This document shows positions 1 through 60,516 of a stretch of DNA of 64,000 bases, in pieces. A program made the position numbers and the translations under genes. Location of the stretch: positions 12,205-76,204 of IMG/VR virus record IMGVR_UViG_3300037070_006409. One strand, written 5' to 3'. The notes beneath the pieces were generated by a model that searched no databases, had not been told where the DNA came from, and saw nothing but the letters and a program-made list of their open reading frames with translations. The DNA comes from a virus. Numbering within the stretch: position 1 is the first letter of the stretch; the number at the start of each line of letters is the position of its first letter.

Positions 1-20
1 TTGCCGACCCCGATTCGATC

Positions 21-1883
21 GTGCTCTCCGTCCGCGCTCCAGACGGCACGATGTCGATCTACATCTACGAAGCCAGCAGCTCGGAAGAACCGCGGATCAT
101 GCGCACCGGCACTGGCGACTACTTCTTCCGCCTCCAGGGCACCGAAACCGGCGCCTACGAGTACCGCTGGAAATGGTCGGGAGGCGCCGACGGCGAGGAG
201 AGCGGCACCTTGTACTTCGGCGTCAACCCGCTGCTGGAGCCGTTCCCCGACGGCACCTTCACCGCCGCCGAAGTCTGGGCACGCTCGCTCACGTTGAAGG
301 CCCGCTACCCCCAGGGCAGCGGAGACGGCGACTTCGACCTCCTGGTCGCCGCCGTCGCGCCTCTCGTCGGCGATATGACCGGCCGGGCGATCGCCGGCAC
401 CGAAGGCGAGGAAGTCCCCGAGGACAAGCGCGAGGTGGCGCTGCGGGTGATGGCGATGAAGACCGAGCAGTTCGACGCCGCGCTCGGCAGCACCAAGGCC
501 CGCCGTCGCTCCCTCAACCGCGGCAACCTGGCGAGCTTCTCGGCGGGGGCCTACTGTGTCCCAATGGACACCGAAGCGCTGACCTCGAAAGGCTGGCGCA
601 ACTACGGCGATCTCTGCGTCGGCGATCTCGTGCTCGGCTTCGATCAAGATGCAGATGTTGCCCGGTGGACACCGATCACGAACATTCGCGCGCCATTTGA
701 GTCTGAGGTGGTCAAGCTGGGCAACGGTCGCTGGTCTCTGCGCTGCACGCCTGATCACCGCTGGATCTCGCGTGATGACCGTTGGTGCGTTCGCGACCAA
801 GAGAACCCCTGGGAGATGACGAAGACGCGGGAGCTACTGGAAGGCGAGCGCCGACTAGTGCTCGCCGCCCCAGCGGAGACAGAGCGCAAACTCGACATCA
901 GCCCTCCCGAGGCAGCCCTAATCGCTTGGCTTCTCACCGATGGGCATATCGAACGCCGGGAAGAGGCTGTCAAGGTCGAGGCCCCACCGCTGGAAGATGG
1001 CGGGACTCGTTGCCTTTGTGGGGCCTTCATCCCCTATGGAGGGCGGGGGATGCCAAGGCACTTCTGTGATGACTGCGCTCCGGTGCGTCAGACCGAAACC
1101 CGGGATGCCTCTATGCGAGGGCGGATCTTCCAGAAGCATTATCGCGAGGAGGTCGAGTCCGTTCTCACGGCTGTGGCTGTCCCTCATTCCGTTCGTGAGA
1201 GAGGAGAGCAGGGCGGTGTTTACAGTCTCGGGTGCAGATGGCTTGCCGACCTTTGGGAGCGCGCATGCTTCGATGAGCTAGGGCCATCAGGGTTTGTCCT
1301 AGCGCTTGATAGGGACCAGCGCGAGGCGTTCCTAGAGGCGGGCCTGCTGGCCGAGGGGCACCTCGCATCTGCTACTGCCCCGCTGAAGGCGAAGGGCAAC
1401 TATGGCCCGTGGTATCGCTGGCAGTTCGCTCAGAACAAGGGGCCGGTCCTCGATGCTTTTGTGCTTGCCGCCCATCTCTGCGGCTACGTGGCACGCACTT
1501 GGAAGACTAAGGCAAAGTGCAGTGGCTTCATCTGCGGAGCAGCCCATGCGACCACTCAAAGGCTGCGCGTCGAGCCAGATGGTCGAGGGTTGGTTTGGTG
1601 CATCACCACCGAGCTTGGCACTTGGACGATGCGCCAAGGCAACATCATCGCGTTGACAGGGAACAGCGAGTCCTACTTCGGCCCCGAGCAGGCGATGCTC
1701 GCGAGGAGGCTCGACCCCGACCCGATCCTCGCCGAGCTGCTCTGGGCGCTCTGCACCGCGGCCAAGCGGGAAGAGTGGCTCGCCTTCTGGGACCCCGAGA
1801 ACAACCCGCAGGGCGTCGGCGGCGTGGTCTCTTTCCAGTACGGCAACCGACCCAACTACGGAACGTCTAGTCGGGGGTGGTGA
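21..1883 (+). CDS. Head-tail connector (neck/adaptor) protein with N-terminal beta-rich domain, interrupted by an intein; probably 5'-truncated by the window edge
   Basis: The frame is open from position 3 (ADPDSIVLSVRAPDGT...). After intein removal the exteins read LASFSAGAY|SESY, resembling the SFS.G.YS.SY motif of gp15/gp6-like connectors. It lies directly upstream of head-closure and neck genes. Confidence 0.65.
   Translation: MLSVRAPDGTMSIYIYEASSSEEPRIMRTGTGDYFFRLQGTETGAYEYRWKWSGGADGEESGTLYFGVNPLLEPFPDGTFTAAEVWARSLTLKARYPQGSGDGDFDLLVAAVAPLVGDMTGRAIAGTEGEEVPEDKREVALRVMAMKTEQFDAALGSTKARRRSLNRGNLASFSAGAYCVPMDTEALTSKGWRNYGDLCVGDLVLGFDQDADVARWTPITNIRAPFESEVVKLGNGRWSLRCTPDHRWISRDDRWCVRDQENPWEMTKTRELLEGERRLVLAAPAETERKLDISPPEAALIAWLLTDGHIERREEAVKVEAPPLEDGGTRCLCGAFIPYGGRGMPRHFCDDCAPVRQTETRDASMRGRIFQKHYREEVESVLTAVAVPHSVRERGEQGGVYSLGCRWLADLWERACFDELGPSGFVLALDRDQREAFLEAGLLAEGHLASATAPLKAKGNYGPWYRWQFAQNKGPVLDAFVLAAHLCGYVARTWKTKAKCSGFICGAAHATTQRLRVEPDGRGLVWCITTELGTWTMRQGNIIALTGNSESYFGPEQAMLARRLDPDPILAELLWALCTAAKREEWLAFWDPENNPQGVGGVVSFQYGNRPNYGTSSRGW
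555..1664 (+). mobile_element. Intein (370 aa) with LAGLIDADG-type endonuclease region
   Basis: Block A CVPMDTEALTSKGW, block B LRCTPDHRW, block F/G VWCITTELGTWTMRQGNIIALTGN followed by +1 Ser. LAGLIDADG-like motifs IAWLLTDG and AFLEAGLLAEG. Confidence 0.93.
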
Positions 1884-1884
1884 G

Positions 1885-2457
1885 GTGCCGTCACGTGAGG
1901 AGGCTCGTCGGCTACGCGCCAAGGGCCTTCTGCATCGCGAAATCGCGAAACGACTCGGGGTGCATAGCTCGACGGTCTCGCGGTGGCTCAACGGTCGGAA
2001 GCCAGTGCCAGCCGGTAGCTCGACGCCATCGGCTCGCAAGGTCACCGAGACGCGCCGCGCTAACGGTCTCTGCCCTCGGTGCGGTCAGACCCCGGCACCG
2101 GGGCGGGTGACGTGCGAGGCCTGTCTGGGGATTGACCGGGAGAAAGCCCGCGCCGCTCGTCGCCGGCTGGTCGCTGAGGTGATCGCCGCATATGGTGGAG
2201 AGTGCGTCTGCTGCGGCGAGAGCGAGCCGATGTTTCTCACCGTGGATCACCCGAACGACGACGGCGCGGATCACCGCCGCGAGCTGGGGATGGCGCGAGA
2301 TCGCGGGCAGTCGGCTGGTAGCCACTTCTACATGTGGTTGAAGCGCGAAGGATTCCCGGCCAGGTTCCGGCTGCTGTGCTTCAACTGCAACTCAGGGCGT
2401 CATCGGAACGGCGGGTTGTGCCCGCACCAGCGTAAGCGGCTACGGGCGGTGGCCTAG
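1885..2457 (+). CDS. HTH + zinc-finger HNH endonuclease (free-standing homing type)
   Basis: N-terminal HTH (HREIAKRLGVHSSTVSRWL), CPRC/CEAC, then YGGECVCCGE...LTVDH...LLCFNCN HNH-type core. Confidence 0.85.
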   Translation: MPSREEARRLRAKGLLHREIAKRLGVHSSTVSRWLNGRKPVPAGSSTPSARKVTETRRANGLCPRCGQTPAPGRVTCEACLGIDREKARAARRRLVAEVIAAYGGECVCCGESEPMFLTVDHPNDDGADHRRELGMARDRGQSAGSHFYMWLKREGFPARFRLLCFNCNSGRHRNGGLCPHQRKRLRAVA

Positions 2458-2903
2458 TGCCTTTGGGCGATGTCACCGTCCACACCGCGACTCCGATCCT
2501 CACCACGACCAGCGAGGACGAAGACACCTGGGTCGAGGGCGAGCCTGACGAGACGACCAGCTTCGGCGTCGTCTTCGACTGCTTCTACATGCACGGCCGG
2601 GGTGCCACTGAGCAGCCAGCGGTGCCGCGGGGCCGGCGCAAGGTCGAGGGGCCGACGATCATCTACGAGTCCGAACGCGACGATGGCTCGATCGTCCAGC
2701 TCGTCGCTGAGGACGAAGTGGTGATCGACCCCGGCGATGATGAGGGCATCTGGGCTGTGCTCGGGGGCGAAGGCCAGACGGTGAAAGTCGGCAACGAGGA
2801 GATCCCCGGTGTCCGCTTCCAGGTAGACGGTGACCCCGAACCCTTCCAACCACCCGGCGAAGTGCTGGGCTTCCAGGCTCGGCTCAAGCGGGTGGTGGAT
2901 TGA
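2457..2903 (+). CDS. Putative head-closure (head-tail adaptor, gp16-like) protein
   Basis: Size, position between connector and gp10-like gene, and beta-rich composition ending RFQVDGDPEPF...GFQARLKRV. Confidence 0.55.
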   Translation: MPLGDVTVHTATPILTTTSEDEDTWVEGEPDETTSFGVVFDCFYMHGRGATEQPAVPRGRRKVEGPTIIYESERDDGSIVQLVAEDEVVIDPGDDEGIWAVLGGEGQTVKVGNEEIPGVRFQVDGDPEPFQPPGEVLGFQARLKRVVD

Positions 2904-3875: not shown

Positions 3876-4415
3876 GTGGGCTACAAAGCCGACGGCGATC
3901 TCGGCACAGACCTCTTCCCCGAGCGCTTCATCACCGAGACCGCCGAGGAGATCGCCGACGCCGTGGGCGACCGCTTCCGCGACGGCGTGGCAAAGCGCAC
4001 CCCGGTCGCCCGTCTTCCCCAGGCCTACACCGGGGACTTCATCGAGTGGATCAAGGACCGCGGTGGCCGCACGCCGCGGACCATGCGCGACTCCTGGCGC
4101 CGCTCGACCGTCAAACGCAACCCTGACGGCACCCTCACCGTCGAGATCTACAGCGACGAACCGATGGACAGCCAGGGTCGGCAGAAGGCCGATCTTGTCG
4201 AGGAGGACACGCGGCCGCACCTCATCCGGGCCAAGCGCGCCAAGGCCCTGCGCTACCCGTTCGGGCCGGTCTTCCGCTACAACGTCGAGGTCTGGCACCC
4301 CGGCACCCAGGGCGTCCATATGTGTCGCGACACCGAAGCCGAGATGGAGGTGGCGTGGGAGACGATCGCCCGCCCGATCCTGGAGCGCAAGGAGCGCGAG
4401 TACAGCGACGTGTAG
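3876..4415 (+). CDS. HK97 gp10-like neck/tail-completion protein
   Basis: RTPV...MRDSW...VEEDTRPHLIRAKRAKALRY...VWHPGTQG, characteristic of this family. Confidence 0.75.
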   Translation: MGYKADGDLGTDLFPERFITETAEEIADAVGDRFRDGVAKRTPVARLPQAYTGDFIEWIKDRGGRTPRTMRDSWRRSTVKRNPDGTLTVEIYSDEPMDSQGRQKADLVEEDTRPHLIRAKRAKALRYPFGPVFRYNVEVWHPGTQGVHMCRDTEAEMEVAWETIARPILERKEREYSDV

Positions 4416-5681: not shown

Positions 5682-6083
5682 ATGGGCGACCAGCCGAAAC
5701 CGGGTTCCTCCCCACGCAGCGGCGACGCAGCCGCGCAGCGCAAAGCCGAGGAGGAGCGTCAGGCCGCCGAGAAGGCAGCCACCGAGGCCGCTGAGAAGCG
5801 CGAAGCGCTTGACCTCCCAGCCGACGCCACCGACGAGGAAGTCGAGAAGGCCGAAGAGGCTGCCACGGCACCCTCGGAGGAGGAGGAGGTCCAGGAGGCC
5901 GAGGGACCGCAGCGCTACCCGGTCGAGGAGCTGCTCGAAAACGCCCGCACGCTGACGGGCTTCTCCCGGCACCTCCTGGCGGGGGCGCTCAGCGGAAAGG
6001 ACCGCGAGACGTTCACCGTCGAGGAAGCCAAGGCTGCGGCCAAGAGCTTCTCCAAGCGCAAGGTGGGTGAGGAGGAGAAGTGA
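5682..6083 (+). CDS. Acidic low-complexity protein with C-terminal YqzN/YkzM-like domain (PBSX pre-sheath gene)
   Basis: C-terminus YPVEELLENARTLTGFSRHLLAGAL...FTVEEAKAAAKSF resembles the small pre-sheath proteins of PBSX/skin elements. It overlaps the sheath start. Confidence 0.5.
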   Translation: MGDQPKPGSSPRSGDAAAQRKAEEERQAAEKAATEAAEKREALDLPADATDEEVEKAEEAATAPSEEEEVQEAEGPQRYPVEELLENARTLTGFSRHLLAGALSGKDRETFTVEEAKAAAKSFSKRKVGEEEK

Positions 6084-7579
6084 CGACCCTCCAGCGCCCC
6101 GACAATCCGGGCACCTACATCAGCCTCGTCGGCGAATCCGCCGTCCGGCCTCCTGCCAACGTCGCCTCCACCGTCGCCATCCCGATCGTCCACGATTGGG
6201 GGCCGATCGGCTCCGACGAACCGGGCAGTGACGGCAAGCAGGGCGGCGTCCAGCTCTGCGAAGTCTTCGGCAACTTCGACGCTCTCTTCGGCAACTCCGA
6301 CACCGACGGCCGCGATGCCGCACTCGGTGCCTTCGTCGGCCCTGGCGTCCCAGGTGAGCCGGGAGCAGGCGGCGTCCTGGTCTACCGCATGGCGACCAGC
6401 GCCGCAAAAGCCTCGACCAAAACGATCAAAAACACGAAAGAAGCCCCCGAAGATGCGCTGGTCCTCACGGCGGTCTACAAGGGCGAGCGCGGCGATCGGA
6501 TCTCCTACGTCATCGACACCGATCCCACCGATGAAGCGAAGGCCCGGCTGCGCATCCGCTTCGACGGCGTGGTCCAGGAGCGCTACAGCTACGCCAAAAC
6601 GGACATCACCGCCCTGGCGGCAGCGATCAACGCCCGCTCCAAGTACGTCACCGCCGAAGTGAAAAAATCCGGCATCGCGCTCGCCACCACCACCGGCACC
6701 GCGCTGGCCGGCGGCAACAACGGTGACGAAGTGACGGCGACCGAGTGGGAAGAAGCACTCTCGTCCTTCGAGTTGCAGGACTTCTCGATCTTCGCGCCAT
6801 TCGACCTCACCGACGACGAAGTGATCGCGATGGTGCTCTCCTGGGTGGAAACCCAGGCCGCGCAGCAGACGCCGGTCTTCGCCGTCCTCGGCGGGAAAGA
6901 CACCGAGGACCTCACCGAAGCGATCGAAAAAGCGGAAGACATCCGCAACGAGCACATCGTCCGCGTCGCCGGAGGGAAATTCCACGACGACTTCTTGGAC
7001 AAGGACATCAGCACCTCCAAGCTCGCCGCCCGGATCGCGGGCATCCTCGCCGGCCGCGGCGAAGAGTCCTCGCTCACCTTCGCTCCGATCGCCGGTCTCA
7101 AGCAGGTCGGCTCCACGATCATCGGCACCGACGAGCTGGCGCTTGCCGCCGAACAGGGCCTGACCGTCTTCCGCCGGGCTTCACGTCCGAACACCGACCT
7201 CGTGATCGCCAAGGGCGTCACGACCTACACGAATCAGACGGACCCGACGAAGCCCTACGAACTCTTTTCCGACCCGCGCATCGTCCGCGTCGCCGACCTC
7301 TTCCTGCGGCGGATGAAGGAGTGGGGCGACGAGAACATCATTGGCCCGACGCGCGTCATCGAGACCACGAAGGCGGCTGTGAGGCAGCGCGGTATCGCCG
7401 AGCTGTCCGACCTCGAATCGCGAGGCATGATCCTGCCTGGCACGAGCGAGGCCGACAAACCCTTCTTCCGCATCGTGGACGACCCCGGCCCGAGCCTGGA
7501 AGACGCGATCGTCTTCGAGTTCGGCTGGAAGTTCGCCCGCACGACCAACTTCTTGATCGGCACCGGGAAGGTGAGGTAG
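6080..7579 (+). CDS. Contractile tail sheath protein (XkdK-like)
   Basis: N-terminal RPDNPGTYI...AIPIVHDWGP; LAGGNNG; AARIAGILAG...SLTF; C-terminal IVRVAD. Confidence 0.9.
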   Translation: MTTLQRPDNPGTYISLVGESAVRPPANVASTVAIPIVHDWGPIGSDEPGSDGKQGGVQLCEVFGNFDALFGNSDTDGRDAALGAFVGPGVPGEPGAGGVLVYRMATSAAKASTKTIKNTKEAPEDALVLTAVYKGERGDRISYVIDTDPTDEAKARLRIRFDGVVQERYSYAKTDITALAAAINARSKYVTAEVKKSGIALATTTGTALAGGNNGDEVTATEWEEALSSFELQDFSIFAPFDLTDDEVIAMVLSWVETQAAQQTPVFAVLGGKDTEDLTEAIEKAEDIRNEHIVRVAGGKFHDDFLDKDISTSKLAARIAGILAGRGEESSLTFAPIAGLKQVGSTIIGTDELALAAEQGLTVFRRASRPNTDLVIAKGVTTYTNQTDPTKPYELFSDPRIVRVADLFLRRMKEWGDENIIGPTRVIETTKAAVRQRGIAELSDLESRGMILPGTSEADKPFFRIVDDPGPSLEDAIVFEFGWKFARTTNFLIGTGKVR

Positions 7580-7582
7580 CCC

Positions 7583-8104
7583 ATGCCCCAGCAGGCATAC
7601 CCAGGACCCAAGGGCAACCTCAAGCCACGCCAGCGTCGCGCTGGCCGCGCTGGCAAGGTCTGGATCAACGGCCGCTTCATGGGCGACATCCTTTCCGTGC
7701 AGTGGGACGTGGAGATCGAGCAGATCCCGGTCGCGATGCCGGGCACGTGGCAGGACGGCACCAAGCCTGGCGCCGAGGCCCGCCGCGGCACCTTCCGCTT
7801 CCAGGACGTTGACGACGAGTGGCGTCGCCTCGTCTGGGGCTTCTGCCAGGCCCGCAAGCAGGGCAACCGCGAGCTGGCCGCCGAATTCCCCGAATTCGAT
7901 GTCATCACCGAAATTGACGACGTGGGCGCGCCCGCGAAGACGCGCTGGTCGCTGCTGAGCTGCCAGCTCTTTAGCTACTCCGGCGGCTTCTCCCAGGAAG
8001 ACCAGCTCCTCGTCCGCGACGTGCCCTTCACCTTCGAGGACGACCTCCCGCTGGACTCGTTCGTGTATTCAGACGCGGGAATCACCACGTATGAAAATGG
8101 CTGA
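7583..8104 (+). CDS. Tail tube protein (XkdM-like)
   Basis: GRAGKVWING...G.K.G...RGT...VDD...IDD...VPFTFED; follows the sheath. Confidence 0.85.
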   Translation: MPQQAYPGPKGNLKPRQRRAGRAGKVWINGRFMGDILSVQWDVEIEQIPVAMPGTWQDGTKPGAEARRGTFRFQDVDDEWRRLVWGFCQARKQGNRELAAEFPEFDVITEIDDVGAPAKTRWSLLSCQLFSYSGGFSQEDQLLVRDVPFTFEDDLPLDSFVYSDAGITTYENG

Positions 8105-8106
8105 GG

Positions 8107-8577
8107 ATGCCCTCCTCGGCCTTTTCGGATAACGCCTGGTTCTCCGGCTTCGCTGACGGCGAGGGCAGCTTTGGGATCTACCCGACTTACCGGCCTCACG
8201 GCGGCTATACCCCGCGCTTCGCTCTGCATATCCGCGCCGACGATCTCCCTGTACTGGAGGAATTGCGCGCAGAGTTCGGCGGGTCGATCCGGTTCCGTTG
8301 CACGCAGGCCGAACGGGGCGAAGGAAGGCCGCAGGCCTACTGGACGGTCAACGGCAAGGCTGACCTTGCGCGGTTGGTCGCCTACTTTGATCGTTTCCCT
8401 TTGAGGGCGAAGAAGCAGCGTGACTATGCGATCTGGCGCCATGCCGTTCAGGTCTACCTTGCCAACGGCTATAGGGCCAGAGAGCTGCCAGCGTTGTACG
8501 AGGCGATCGTTGCAGTGCGCGACTACGAGGCACCCGATGCTCTAGCTCCCGAGGCAATCCCAGAGAGCATCGCCTGA
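8107..8577 (+). CDS. Single-motif LAGLIDADG homing endonuclease
   Basis: WFSGFADGEGSFGI...DDLPVLEEL...FGGSI...YFDRFPLRAKKQRDYAIW. Confidence 0.9.
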   Translation: MPSSAFSDNAWFSGFADGEGSFGIYPTYRPHGGYTPRFALHIRADDLPVLEELRAEFGGSIRFRCTQAERGEGRPQAYWTVNGKADLARLVAYFDRFPLRAKKQRDYAIWRHAVQVYLANGYRARELPALYEAIVAVRDYEAPDALAPEAIPESIA

Positions 8578-9561: not shown

Positions 9562-9764
9562 GGCGGCGCGGTCCGACGTGGACGCTCTATTCTCAGTGGC
9601 GGTTCCGGGGTATAGCGCCCTGGGCCGCCTGGCTGAGAACCCAAGAGGAGTGTCCCTGGCCCTCGCGGGGGCGGGCGGTCGAAATCGGCTTCGCGATCCA
9701 CGCCGCCGAACTGGAGAGGACAACGATCGACATCGTAGAGGCGCTCGGGGAGACAGCGGGATGA
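9549..9764 (+). CDS. -1 frameshift extension of the tail chaperone (gpGT); slippery site A AAA AAC at 9549-9555
   Basis: The -1 frame reads LLGRRGPTWTLYSQWRFRGIAPW...IVEALGETAG with TGA at 9762-9764, overlapping the next ATG. This is the canonical arrangement. Confidence 0.85.
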   Translation, partial: KKLLGRRGPTWTLYSQWRFRGIAPWAAWLRTQEECPWPSRGRAVEIGFAIHAAELERTTIDIVEALGETAG

Positions 9765-10240
9765 CCCTCCGCCAACGCTTCGACGCCAAGTGGCAACTCG
9801 ATCCCGAGACGGGGTGCTGGCTGTGGACGGCAGCGACCAATCTTGGGGGTTATGGACTGCTCCGGATCACTGAGGAAGGTCAGCGGCGGATGGAGGTCGC
9901 ATCAAGAACGTCATGGCAACTCTTCGTCGGCCCCATTCCCGACGACCTATGCGTCCTCCACCACTGCGACACCCCGCCCTGCGTCAACCCCGAGCACCTC
10001 TTCCTCGGGACAAGGGCCGATAACGCGGCGGATCGTGACGCCAAGGGCAGACATCGGCATGGAACACGACGGGGTGAGGAGCACAGTAACGCGCGGATCA
10101 CGGAGATGATCGCTAGGGAGATTCTGGCTTTGCGGGGGGTGGGCCTGAGTCAGCCGGCGGTGGGCGCTCGCTATGGGGTCAGCCGTCAGCTCGTCTCGGC
10201 GATATGGCGGGGCGAAGCCTGGGCGCATCTAGGGGGGTAG
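9761..10240 (+). CDS. HNH homing endonuclease with C-terminal HTH
   Basis: CWLW...GYG...GPIP...VLHHCDTPPCVNPEHLFLGTRADN; ATGA overlap start. Confidence 0.92.
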   Translation: MTLRQRFDAKWQLDPETGCWLWTAATNLGGYGLLRITEEGQRRMEVASRTSWQLFVGPIPDDLCVLHHCDTPPCVNPEHLFLGTRADNAADRDAKGRHRHGTRRGEEHSNARITEMIAREILALRGVGLSQPAVGARYGVSRQLVSAIWRGEAWAHLGG

Positions 10241-58289: not shown

Positions 58290-60516
58290 CGAACCGCCGC
58301 CAACGGCTGCGGCGCCGATCGGCGGAATCATCGCCGGGACGCCGAGCGCCGCAGCGGGCGCGGCTGCGCTGGCGACGGGAGCGAAGGCTCAGGCTTCGGT
58401 CGTCCAGAACACGATCAAGGCGGTGCTGGGGATGCTCGCCGCGATCGCGCTCCGGCGGACGAAGATCATCCGCGACCGCGCCGTCGCCGTTTACCCGATG
58501 GCCGACCTCGACCTCGCCATCGCCGAGGAGGACCGCCGCGAGATCGTCTTCCGCAAGCGGGTCGAGCAGCGGCTGCGCGCCGGCATGAAGGTCGCCATGC
58601 GCGCGAAGGACCCCTCAGCGCGCTCCGCGGCGATCGAGGCCCTGCTCAACCGCGAGCAGCGCTACGCCGAGATGCGCACGGCCGCGGCCGGCGAACGAGT
58701 CCTGGCCGCGGCGGAGTTGCAGGACCTGCGCACGCGCTCGCCCCAAGGCGCCTTCTGGGCGCTGGGGATGCGCCAGCGCCACACTCCCGATTCGGTCGGT
58801 CCTGGCATGGTGGTAGAGGGTCCCCCTCTCGAAGCAGCAGCACGTCGCTGGTTCGACGGCGAGCTAATCGAGATCGAGACCAAAGGCGGCGGACGCCTGT
58901 CCTTGACTCCCAATCACCCGGTACTCACCGTGAAAGGATGGGTCGCTGCGCGAGCGCTCGATAAAGGCGACGACCTGATCCGTCACCTGGCGGCTGGGGT
59001 GACCGCTTCGGCGCAGGATGACATAGATGACGTTCCACCCGTGATCGAGGAGATATTCGGTGCGCTTTCGGAGGTGAATCCGCTTGCGCGGGGAGTTATG
59101 CCAGTCCGAGCCGAGGACTTCCACGGCGACGGGCAGCACGGCTATGTCGAGGTTGTAGCTACCTACGGCGCGCTGGGGGAGCGGGTCGAAGCCGCGATCG
59201 CGCAGCAGCGCCAAGAGGGCGCCCTCGTTTGGAACGGCGTGGGACTGATGCAGCTCGGCGGTGAGGGACGCTCGGCAGCGAGCGCGATGACTATTGCCGC
59301 CATTGTGCTCGACTCCACGCAGCCTCACGCCAGCGGCCTTCAGGCGCCTCGTCAACGAGGACCTGGAGATTCCGGAGCTACGACTCAGGGCGAGGACAGA
59401 CTCGCCACCCAGGTAGGCCTCAACCACGTCGGCCGGTGCAGGTTCGACCTGGCTGCGGATTTCTACCCCGAGCCGTTCCAGGGCGTTAATGACCGTCTGG
59501 CCAGTGATCCCGTAGTCGCGGCCGAGCTTCAAGGCGGACTCGCCGGCCCGGTAGCGACTGACGAGATCATCGGCATTCGGCGGCGACCATACGCGGGCCA
59601 CGTCTATGACCTCCAGACCGTCGGGCGTTGGTTCACGGTAGACAGTCTAGTGGTGAGCAATTGCGTTTCGATGGCCGGTCGTTTCTGGCCCTGGGTAGTC
59701 CTCAACGAGGTCCACCCGCTGCTGCACGTCGGCTGCGGCTGCCGCCTCTTCTCCTACGGCGATGCCCTCGCGAAAGGGATGATGGCCGCCACCGACGTGA
59801 TGAGCAACCAGGCCGCGCTCCGGCTCGCCGCTCCGGTGATCCAGCACGTCCGCGATGAGAAGGCCGAGGCAGAGCGCAAGTACGGGCCGATGGCCGAGGA
59901 TGAAGCGGCCGCCACCGAGGAGCTGCTGATCCGCGAGGCGCTGCTGGACCGTGGTGGCGATGCTGACGCCCTGGCGGCGATGCCGCTCTCGTGCGACCCA
60001 CTGCCAGCACCGCTCGGCGTGATCGCCGAGGCCGAAGAGCAGACCGGAGCGATGGTCGCACTGTTTCCAGATCGGAAACTGTCGAAGAAGCTGGCACTGC
60101 CCGGCGGCGATCCTCCCGAGCAGCTCCACGTCACCCTCGCCTTCCTCGGCAAGGCCGCCGACCTGGACTTCGACAAGGCCCGCGCCGCCGTCGAGGCCTG
60201 GGCCAAGAAGACGCCGCCGCTCTCCGGCGAGCTGTCGGGCATCGGCCACTTCGACCTCGGTCGCGGGGAGAAGGTCACCTACCGCTCCGTCGATCTCCCC
60301 GAGCTGCCGACACCGCGCGAGGGCCTCATCGCCGACCTCGACAAGGCGGGCGTGCCACCGCGCCGCGACCACGGATTTTCCCCCCGCATGACGATCGACA
60401 GCCGGATGCGCCGGCCCGAGGTGAAGAAACAGCCGATCACCTTCGCTGAGGTCACCCTCGCCTGGGGAGGGGAGCGGCATCCCTTCCCGCTCCGTGGGGG
60501 AAAGAAATCCACCTGA
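58249..60516 (+). CDS. MuF/SPP1 gp7-like minor head protein containing an intein and a C-terminal 2H phosphoesterase domain; start uncertain
   Basis: Spliced exteins RHTPD|CVSMAGRFW...HPLLHVGCGCRL (MuF Cys/His motif). The C-terminus has HVTLAFLG...FSPRMT (LigT/2'-5' RNA ligase-like). Confidence 0.72.
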   Translation: MPQPRRQARPARSSEPPPTAAAPIGGIIAGTPSAAAGAAALATGAKAQASVVQNTIKAVLGMLAAIALRRTKIIRDRAVAVYPMADLDLAIAEEDRREIVFRKRVEQRLRAGMKVAMRAKDPSARSAAIEALLNREQRYAEMRTAAAGERVLAAAELQDLRTRSPQGAFWALGMRQRHTPDSVGPGMVVEGPPLEAAARRWFDGELIEIETKGGGRLSLTPNHPVLTVKGWVAARALDKGDDLIRHLAAGVTASAQDDIDDVPPVIEEIFGALSEVNPLARGVMPVRAEDFHGDGQHGYVEVVATYGALGERVEAAIAQQRQEGALVWNGVGLMQLGGEGRSAASAMTIAAIVLDSTQPHASGLQAPRQRGPGDSGATTQGEDRLATQVGLNHVGRCRFDLAADFYPEPFQGVNDRLASDPVVAAELQGGLAGPVATDEIIGIRRRPYAGHVYDLQTVGRWFTVDSLVVSNCVSMAGRFWPWVVLNEVHPLLHVGCGCRLFSYGDALAKGMMAATDVMSNQAALRLAAPVIQHVRDEKAEAERKYGPMAEDEAAATEELLIREALLDRGGDADALAAMPLSCDPLPAPLGVIAEAEEQTGAMVALFPDRKLSKKLALPGGDPPEQLHVTLAFLGKAADLDFDKARAAVEAWAKKTPPLSGELSGIGHFDLGRGEKVTYRSVDLPELPTPREGLIADLDKAGVPPRRDHGFSPRMTIDSRMRRPEVKKQPITFAEVTLAWGGERHPFPLRGGKKST
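58792..59661 (+). mobile_element. Intein (290 aa) starting with Ser
   Basis: SVGPGMVV...block B LTPNHPVLTVKGWVAARALDKGD, block F GHVYDLQT, end LVVSN followed by +1 Cys. Confidence 0.88.
58864..59601 (-). CDS. Tandem HTH + DUF559/Vsr-like endonuclease nested antisense inside the intein
   Basis: YRAGESALKLGRDYGIT..TV...L and YLGGES..L...GIS..SL..RL HTHs; PQRAVGSYNLDIA...VEVLGSDWH...L...GWNV nuclease. GGAGG lies 8 nt upstream of the GTG start. Confidence 0.85.
   Translation of the reverse strand: MARVWSPPNADDLVSRYRAGESALKLGRDYGITGQTVINALERLGVEIRSQVEPAPADVVEAYLGGESVLALSRSSGISRSSLTRRLKAAGVRLRGVEHNGGNSHRARCRASLTAELHQSHAVPNEGALLALLRDRGFDPLPQRAVGSYNLDIAVLPVAVEVLGSDWHNSPRKRIHLRKRTEYLLDHGWNVIYVILRRSGHPSRQVTDQVVAFIERSRSDPSFHGEYRVIGSQGQASAAFGLDLD

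Follow-up and report, generated by a model that had tools for sequence, protein, structure and literature searches.

Within the 64,000-nucleotide stretch of DNA analysed here—the window, which covers positions 12205-76204 of a 78,872-base viral contig—the segment from 555 to 1664 is, judged by its sequence, a real and correctly located homing LAGLIDADG intein in the gene for an Ad1 head-tail adaptor. We observe a clean in-frame insertion at a Tyr/Ser junction, complete splicing motifs, both endonuclease acids, five alleles at the same site, and kin in unrelated hosts. Our overall reading is that this is a selfish homing intein in the Ad1 adaptor of a contractile-tailed soil phage, to which we assign a probability of about 0.85. 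Homing LAGLIDADG inteins are already known, as are inteins in portal, MuF, and tape measure proteins; what is new is the host site, the mobile family of five lineages found there together with a portal sister, and an insert with four cysteines.

The intein and its splicing motifs

The reading frame is open at the 5' end of the window, and the gene extends 67 nt beyond it, beginning at genome position 12138. Its 649-aa precursor consists of a 207-aa N-extein, the 370-aa intein, and a 72-aa C-extein, leaving an adaptor of 279 aa once the intein is removed. An initial annotation of this DNA had located an intein at 555-1664 within the motif SFSAGAY/SESY, and both coordinates and flanks prove exact: TGT at 555-557 encodes Cys1, AAC at 1662-1664 encodes Asn370, AGC at 1665-1667 encodes Ser+1, and the flanks translate to SFSAGAY and SESY. 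Its residue range of 179-548 is right if counted from an internal GTG at window position 21, but in the true precursor the intein spans residues 208-577. The mobility across five lineages, the four-cysteine insert, and the occurrence of Cys1 together with a WCT triplet were not part of that annotation. The features discussed here are collected in Table 1.

Table 1. Positions of the intein, its host gene, and other features discussed in the text (window coordinates).
Feature	Position	Strand	Remark
Optional N-terminal Ig-like (filamin/PKD-like) domain	1..221	+	end approximate; about precursor residues 1-95
N-extein of gp6/gp15-type adaptor domain	222..554	+	helical core to first strand and turn of beta-hairpin
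Intein, 370 aa	555..1664	+	precursor residues 208-577
Cys1, class-1 N-terminal nucleophile	555..557	+	in all 40 family members examined
Block B	747..764	+	Thr65, His68, Trp70 (W of WCT triplet)
Block C, first LAGLIDADG motif	912..944	+	catalytic-position Asp129 (at 939)
Four-cysteine insert, putative zinc ribbon	1011..1076	+	Cys153, 155, 171, 174
Block E, second LAGLIDADG motif	1329..1358	+	catalytic-position Glu267 (at 1353)
Blocks F and G	1593..1667	+	Cys349 F4, Thr368 G5, Gly369, Asn370, Ser+1
C-extein, 72 aa	1665..1883	+	second hairpin strand, last helices, C-terminal arm
Probable head-closure (stopper) gene	2457..2903	+	by position and size
HK97 gp10-like gene	3876-4415	+	downstream context
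Tail sheath, contractile tail	6080-7579	+	downstream context
Tail tube, contractile tail	7583-8104	+	downstream context
Second intein, Ser1 and Cys+1, in MuF-like gene after portal	58792-59661	+	
HTH plus Vsr-like nuclease ORF	58864-59601	-	antisense within second intein

Fourteen close intein-free homologues (270-287 aa or 171-182 aa) are colinear across the insertion site; the insertion is in frame and absent from these homologues, as is characteristic of an intein. The intein is not an assembly artefact, since the identical sequence, with zero differences, recurs in contigs assembled from four soil metagenome runs; the record may itself derive from one of these runs. The intein has no match in Pfam, PHROG, or NCBIfam; the ten best PDB sequence matches of the intein-family profile are ten solved inteins (best E 2e-5), and tblastn with the intein matched 191 phage records, under DNA polymerases, methylases, and tape measures. 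No close relative was found among 50,697 cultured-phage records. From the spliced adaptor, the predicted tryptic junction peptide is GNLASFSAGAYSESYFGPEQAMLAR.

Blocks A, B, F, and G can all be recognized, with Cys1, Thr65-x-x-His68, Asn370, and Ser+1 in place. The penultimate His is replaced by Gly369, a known phage variant with which the Bethlehem RDF intein still splices fast (PMC5050341). In addition, the full WCT triplet is present—Trp70 (B12), Cys349 (F4), and Thr368 (G5)—so that a class-1 nucleophile and a class-3 triplet occur in one intein. Cys1, the F4 Cys, and the G5 Thr are found in 40 of the 40 relatives examined, and the B12 Trp in most. Class 3 is defined by the lack of an N-terminal nucleophile (PMC2807308); with Cys1 present, we do not place the intein in that class. 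Tori et al. described three mixed inteins, in InBase in 2009, and left their class open (PMC2807308); one mixed intein, Catera Gp206, was later counted among class 3 (PMC3196547). Like the intein described here, the known mixed inteins (PMC2807308, Catera Gp206) combine an N-terminal nucleophile with Trp-Cys-Thr and Ser+1. They numbered three in InBase in 2009, whereas the present combination is typical of a broad phage family (40 examined), which likewise has no penultimate His. The TOPRIM intein of Nocardioides JS614 was reportedly added as a further mixed intein by Tori and Perler in 2011. The tape-measure inteins of the Gordonia phages Mcklovin and Twinkle belong to the same wider family (tblastn E 9e-13 to the Mcklovin intein) and also have Cys1 and WCT but no penultimate His.

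We favour class 1 for this intein because Cys1 never varies; splicing itself is a prediction from the motifs. The complete triplet with Ser+1 would also suit a class-3 route, in which the attack on the N-terminal junction comes from Cys349 at F4 and Cys1 is not needed, or the use of both routes, and the best solved relatives include the class-3 AceL NrdHF and DnaB inteins. We nonetheless consider this route unlikely: the invariance of Cys1 extends to three inteins with Cys+1 and to hosts as different as DNA polymerase and lysins, a sign that this residue is required; Thr at B7 follows class 1; and the related Mcklovin/Twinkle intein is filed, by sequence only, under class 1.

Between the splicing blocks lie two LAGLIDADG helices with acidic ends (Asp129 and Glu267); the usual block D Lys is not evident. 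A direct Pfam search of the intein returned no LAGLIDADG profile; the full-length relative P0169 matches PF14528 at 2e-7, and Atlas features place the intein at 0.84-0.90 to LAGLIDADG_3 clusters. The four-cysteine insert is intact in four of the five adaptor alleles and half-deleted in the fifth (P0077), and the cysteine pattern is absent from the other 35 family members examined. Comparison of the insert with cultured phages gave no informative match, and the titles and abstracts returned by a literature search contain no case of a zinc ribbon with an intein LAGLIDADG domain. The insert is probably an accessory DNA-binding zinc ribbon.

Relatives and spread of the intein

A profile search of 1.84 billion representatives yielded 161 adaptor relatives, among which three more inteins (P0077, P0100, and P0116) occupy exactly this junction; searching with the intein itself brought in a fifth adaptor allele, which is more distant (P0167), and an HK97-type portal (P0168). 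Five alleles thus occupy the exact site among about 160 adaptors, and about 97% of the family has no intein. When viral and metagenome contigs were scanned with the intein alignment, the only family members to appear were distant ones in other hosts; genome contigs, a set that may leave out records of the phage's own genome, gave none.

The five adaptor inteins are 44-62% identical to one another, and their exteins about 25-45%. The extein of this phage is 72% identical to its intein-free sister P0001, and the closest intein, that of P0077, sits in an extein only 40% identical to this one. In a tree of 135 exteins, the five intein-bearing exteins are separated by well-supported branches, five intein changes are forced, and a single intein-bearing clade is rejected (p-AU 0.00036); in a tree of 40 inteins, the five adaptor inteins form one clade (96/85). 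Codon usage differs as well: GC3 is 0.68 in this intein versus 0.89-0.92 in its exteins (p 8e-12), a foreign value that points to recent arrival. Because the inteins are one clade, their hosts are not, and the codon usage is foreign, the intein appears to be spreading by homing—lateral spread is supported by the trees and GC3, and cleavage of the site is the step we infer.

Vertical inheritance of an element no longer mobile in this phage would agree with the host-like GC3 of alleles P0100 and P0167, and with the finding that the contigs of the four runs, which drop rare variants, hold no intein-free joined form of this phage. The intein-free sister, the distant extein around the nearest intein, the two conserved catalytic acids, and the foreign GC3 all speak against it, and we judge it quite improbable. 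An ancestral intein followed by very many losses gives the same five-change count; the identities and GC3 argue against it, less firmly for the older alleles. Homing is also consistent with decay in two of the alleles, a block C Asn and a deletion of 50 aa, which fits a homing cycle. In P0100 (L010:10001-11734) the block C Asp is replaced by Asn, and its endonuclease is probably old and inactive. P0077 (L012:10001-11551) has lost about 50 aa in frame, and with them block C and half of the four-cysteine insert; its contig is binned, possibly wrongly, in a Chloroflexi MAG.

Nothing suggests a function of the adaptor intein beyond selfish spread. Domestication as a conditional switch, in which zinc or redox state acts through the four-cysteine insert or Cys1/Cys349 to delay splicing and so time neck assembly, draws on three points: the insert is limited to adaptor alleles, the site would block ring closure before splicing (see below), and a class-3 intein, in DnaB of M. 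smegmatis, is reported to sense oxidative stress (PMC6195587). Such a role is very improbable, given that about 97% of the adaptor family and the closest relatives of the phage do without the intein, that its acquisition looks recent, and that the insert lies in the endonuclease rather than the splicing domain and is half lost in one allele.

The portal intein P0168 is the sister of the adaptor clade (100/100; 46-49% identical). It lies at L014:8001-10358 in an HK97-type portal (PF04860). Like the adaptor inteins, it sits at a Tyr/Ser junction; in contrast, its host protein is unrelated to the adaptor and it has no four-cysteine insert. Of 20 bases around the portal junction, 15 are the same in the best intein-free adaptor alleles (mean 12), a likeness noticed post hoc that hints at how a host switch could occur, and P0168 is a candidate for such a switch between portal and adaptor genes. 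Elsewhere in the family, P0169 is a probable baseplate-hub protein with a lytic transglycosylase domain and two inteins of the same family 30 residues apart; further hosts, as read from their flanks, are tape-measure lysozyme-like domains, a lysin, Nudix hydrolases, phosphoesterases, Cas4-like nucleases, and DNA polymerase I.

The genome of this phage is rich in homing elements with low GC3. Its second intein is a different element from the adaptor intein, with a GC3 of 0.69 versus 0.85-0.88 in its exteins, and its host is MuF-like by position and motif only. The initial annotation had virion assembly depend on the splicing of both proteins; for the MuF-like one this is a conjecture. In SPP1, gp7 (MuF) is not known to be required for particle assembly. 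The layout of a Ser1-type intein with an antisense Vsr-like nuclease has been published by Gosselin et al. 2025 (bioRxiv 10.1101/2025.01.02.630785). Free-standing nuclease genes also occur in the virion module (window 1885-2457, 8107-8577, and 9578-10240; L001:1296-1790); one of them, with HTH plus HNH-like domains, lies directly 3' of the adaptor gene and is missing there in related loci. The gene at 8107-8577 was considered as a relative of the intein, and no relatedness was detectable. The recA of the phage (window 54866-55894) is 76-81% identical to the RecA of Solirubrobacterales MAGs and gives the best clue to the bacterial host, which probably belongs to the Solirubrobacterales.

The host protein and the insertion site

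The fold evidence comes from models of two homologues, P0002 and P0010, which stand in for the spliced product of this phage. P0010 is a single-domain homologue, 67% identical to this extein, modelled from 130 sequences with a pLDDT of 88.9. Compared with 48,161 chains, its best match is HK97 gp6 (3jvo; Z 8.2, rmsd 3.4, 91 aligned)—a Z score that is modest, taken alone, for a helical bundle—and the first 16 ranks contain only phage neck or connector structures and YqbG. The comparison with gp15/gp6 connectors that the initial annotation had proposed, run here on P0010, thus returned HK97 gp6 first. Other searches were less productive: Foldseek gave no match at E<=0.001 for the adaptor-only model and Ig folds only for the two-domain model, and the Atlas structure search reached adaptor-type clusters at TM 0.41-0.43 only. 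Atlas features gave YqbG/PF05135 at 0.94. In PHROG, 13 of 130 relatives match phrog_541 (best 2e-5, weak), and phrog_40, 442, 477, and 4931, each or together, are matched weakly by a few adaptor relatives; this adaptor and its closest homologues match none of the PHROG adaptor profiles. A PDB sequence search with adaptor profiles found nothing, and neither the extein nor two homologues gave a significant tblastn match among cultured phages.

Gene order is informative as well. The adaptor gene lies 3' of the major capsid and accessory head genes and 5' of a stopper-sized gene and the gp10-like, sheath, and tube genes; the same order is kept in seven related loci, whose gene lists contain no second adaptor candidate. 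The stopper-sized gene has no match in Pfam or PHROG, and a gene of 122-141 aa lies directly 3' of the adaptor in L002, L003, L009, L010, L013, and L015. Because the run of neck proteins, the weak PHROG matches, the Atlas features, and the gene order all agree, the clear reading of the models and context is that the host protein is an Ad1 head-tail adaptor with the HK97 gp6/SPP1 gp15 fold, as the name head-tail connector in the initial annotation had implied. We give very little credence to the view that the host is some other virion protein, accessory or of the neck region, whose helical bundle happens to be similar. Such a view could appeal to the lack of PDB sequence matches and strong Foldseek matches, to PHROG matches at E 2e-5 or weaker with none for the closest homologues, and to Atlas TM values below 0.5. 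Against it, each of the 16 closest structures is that of a neck or adaptor protein, and in seven loci that list no other adaptor candidate the gene keeps its place, with the major capsid gene on one side and the gp10-like, sheath, and tube genes on the other.

As an Ad1 adaptor, the protein would share with HK97 gp6, SPP1 gp15, and B. subtilis YqbG (3jvo, 1xn8; PMC9701221) a four-helix core with a beta-hairpin and a gene located after that for the major capsid, as well as self-association, predicted here, in which subunits meet side by side at the hairpin region. It differs from them in its greater length (a core of about 180 aa), extra C-terminal helices, an optional N-terminal Ig-like domain, and, in this phage, the intein in the hairpin. 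P0002 is a two-domain homologue; residues 1-91 of its model resemble filamin/Ig folds (Z up to 7.6), and the homologues of 171-182 aa have no such domain. About a quarter of the adaptor family carries it, with 43 of 162 relatives measuring 240-330 aa; Ig-bearing adaptors are scattered over the tree, and the domain is probably a neck decoration.

When four copies of P0010 were modelled together, the score was 0.64, which may stem from likeness to solved rings, and the best control scored 0.00; 20 of 30 solved pairs attain the mark for this score, as does 1 of 23 single chains. Contacts agreed by at least 87% between runs, with pLDDT of at least 76, and the interface includes residues 95-101 and 106-113. 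The model backs self-association only; a dodecameric ring under the portal is a prediction.

The intein junction corresponds to Tyr105/Ser106 of P0010, at the start of the second hairpin strand (strands 97-100 and 107-109; +1 is residue 106). No stretch of 11 residues in the family is more conserved than the one that contains it (77% versus a median of 42%), and Ser is found at +1 in 114 of 130 members. Ala at -2 had seemed specific to intein alleles among the 14 nearest homologues; in the wider family it is variable. One adaptor homologue, P0074 (L178:88-519), breaks off at the same hairpin on a contig of 601 bp, which may reflect a frameshift, an intron, or an artefact.

In SPP1 gp15, a loop folds into a hairpin to form a 24-stranded barrel that lines the DNA tunnel and carries the stopper (PMC9701221). 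By analogy of fold, the intein site would correspond to this barrel hairpin, and an unspliced insert of 370 aa there should block ring formation. Because the site appears to be the hairpin that builds the barrel between subunits and docks the stopper, splicing would have to precede assembly.

The initial annotation regarded the insertion site as unusual, and proposed a search of intein collections. That view stands for the host protein, which appears in neither of two actinophage surveys (bioRxiv 10.1101/2025.01.02.630785; PMC5050341); it does not extend to the kind of site, as virion inteins are not exceptional and this one obeys the ordinary rule that inteins occupy the most conserved motif. 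Gosselin, Arsenault, and Gogarten 2025 list 784 actinophage inteins in 19 host proteins, including portal, minor capsid (MuF family), and tape measure, and an adaptor or connector is absent from both text and supplements (bioRxiv 10.1101/2025.01.02.630785); in the survey by Kelley et al. 2016, portal is the only virion-protein host (PMC5050341). Inteins of crAss-like phages are found mainly in terminase. Among the titles and abstracts returned by full-text literature searches, whose reach did not extend to InBase and most subscription journals, none describes a head-tail adaptor that carries an intein. With the class-1 LAGLIDADG inteins of actinophage virion genes (Mcklovin, Twinkle, and the cluster C1 mycobacteriophage portal) this intein shares a virion host gene and a sporadic distribution; unlike them, it lies in a head-tail adaptor and has a four-cysteine endonuclease insert.

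Proposed cycle and its meaning

We propose that the 649-aa precursor self-splices, most likely through an N-S shift at Cys1, transfer to Ser+1, and Asn370 cyclisation without a penultimate His. This would release the 279-aa Ig-adaptor to form a ring on the portal, with splicing coming first and ring assembly and stopper docking after it. The freed LAGLIDADG domain would cut intein-free adaptor genes of co-infecting phages, and repair of the cut gene would copy the intein in. On this proposal the site was taken for its conservation at the DNA level and its Ser+1, not for any gain to the phage.

With this intein, the list of intein hosts gains a non-enzymatic neck protein. The target is a structural hairpin, which would mean that what homing inteins track is sequence conservation and not chemistry that involves ATP or nucleic acids. 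Neither Pfam nor NCBIfam recognizes the family; its genes are therefore labelled long hypothetical proteins and are undercounted in surveys. A bolder picture, which we hold as speculative and rather doubtful, has the adaptor inteins representing an architecture not described before, a LAGLIDADG homing domain whose built-in four-cysteine zinc ribbon widens DNA recognition, changing hosts between portal and adaptor by way of a short shared DNA site, and belonging to a family that splices by a class-1 or a class-3 route—a living intermediate for the origin of class 3. With Cys1 and WCT together, which cysteine starts splicing bears on the origin of class 3; the four-cysteine insert raises the question of the part that a zinc ribbon plays within a LAGLIDADG domain; and one endonuclease lineage recognizing both portal and adaptor sites would be a case of host switching.
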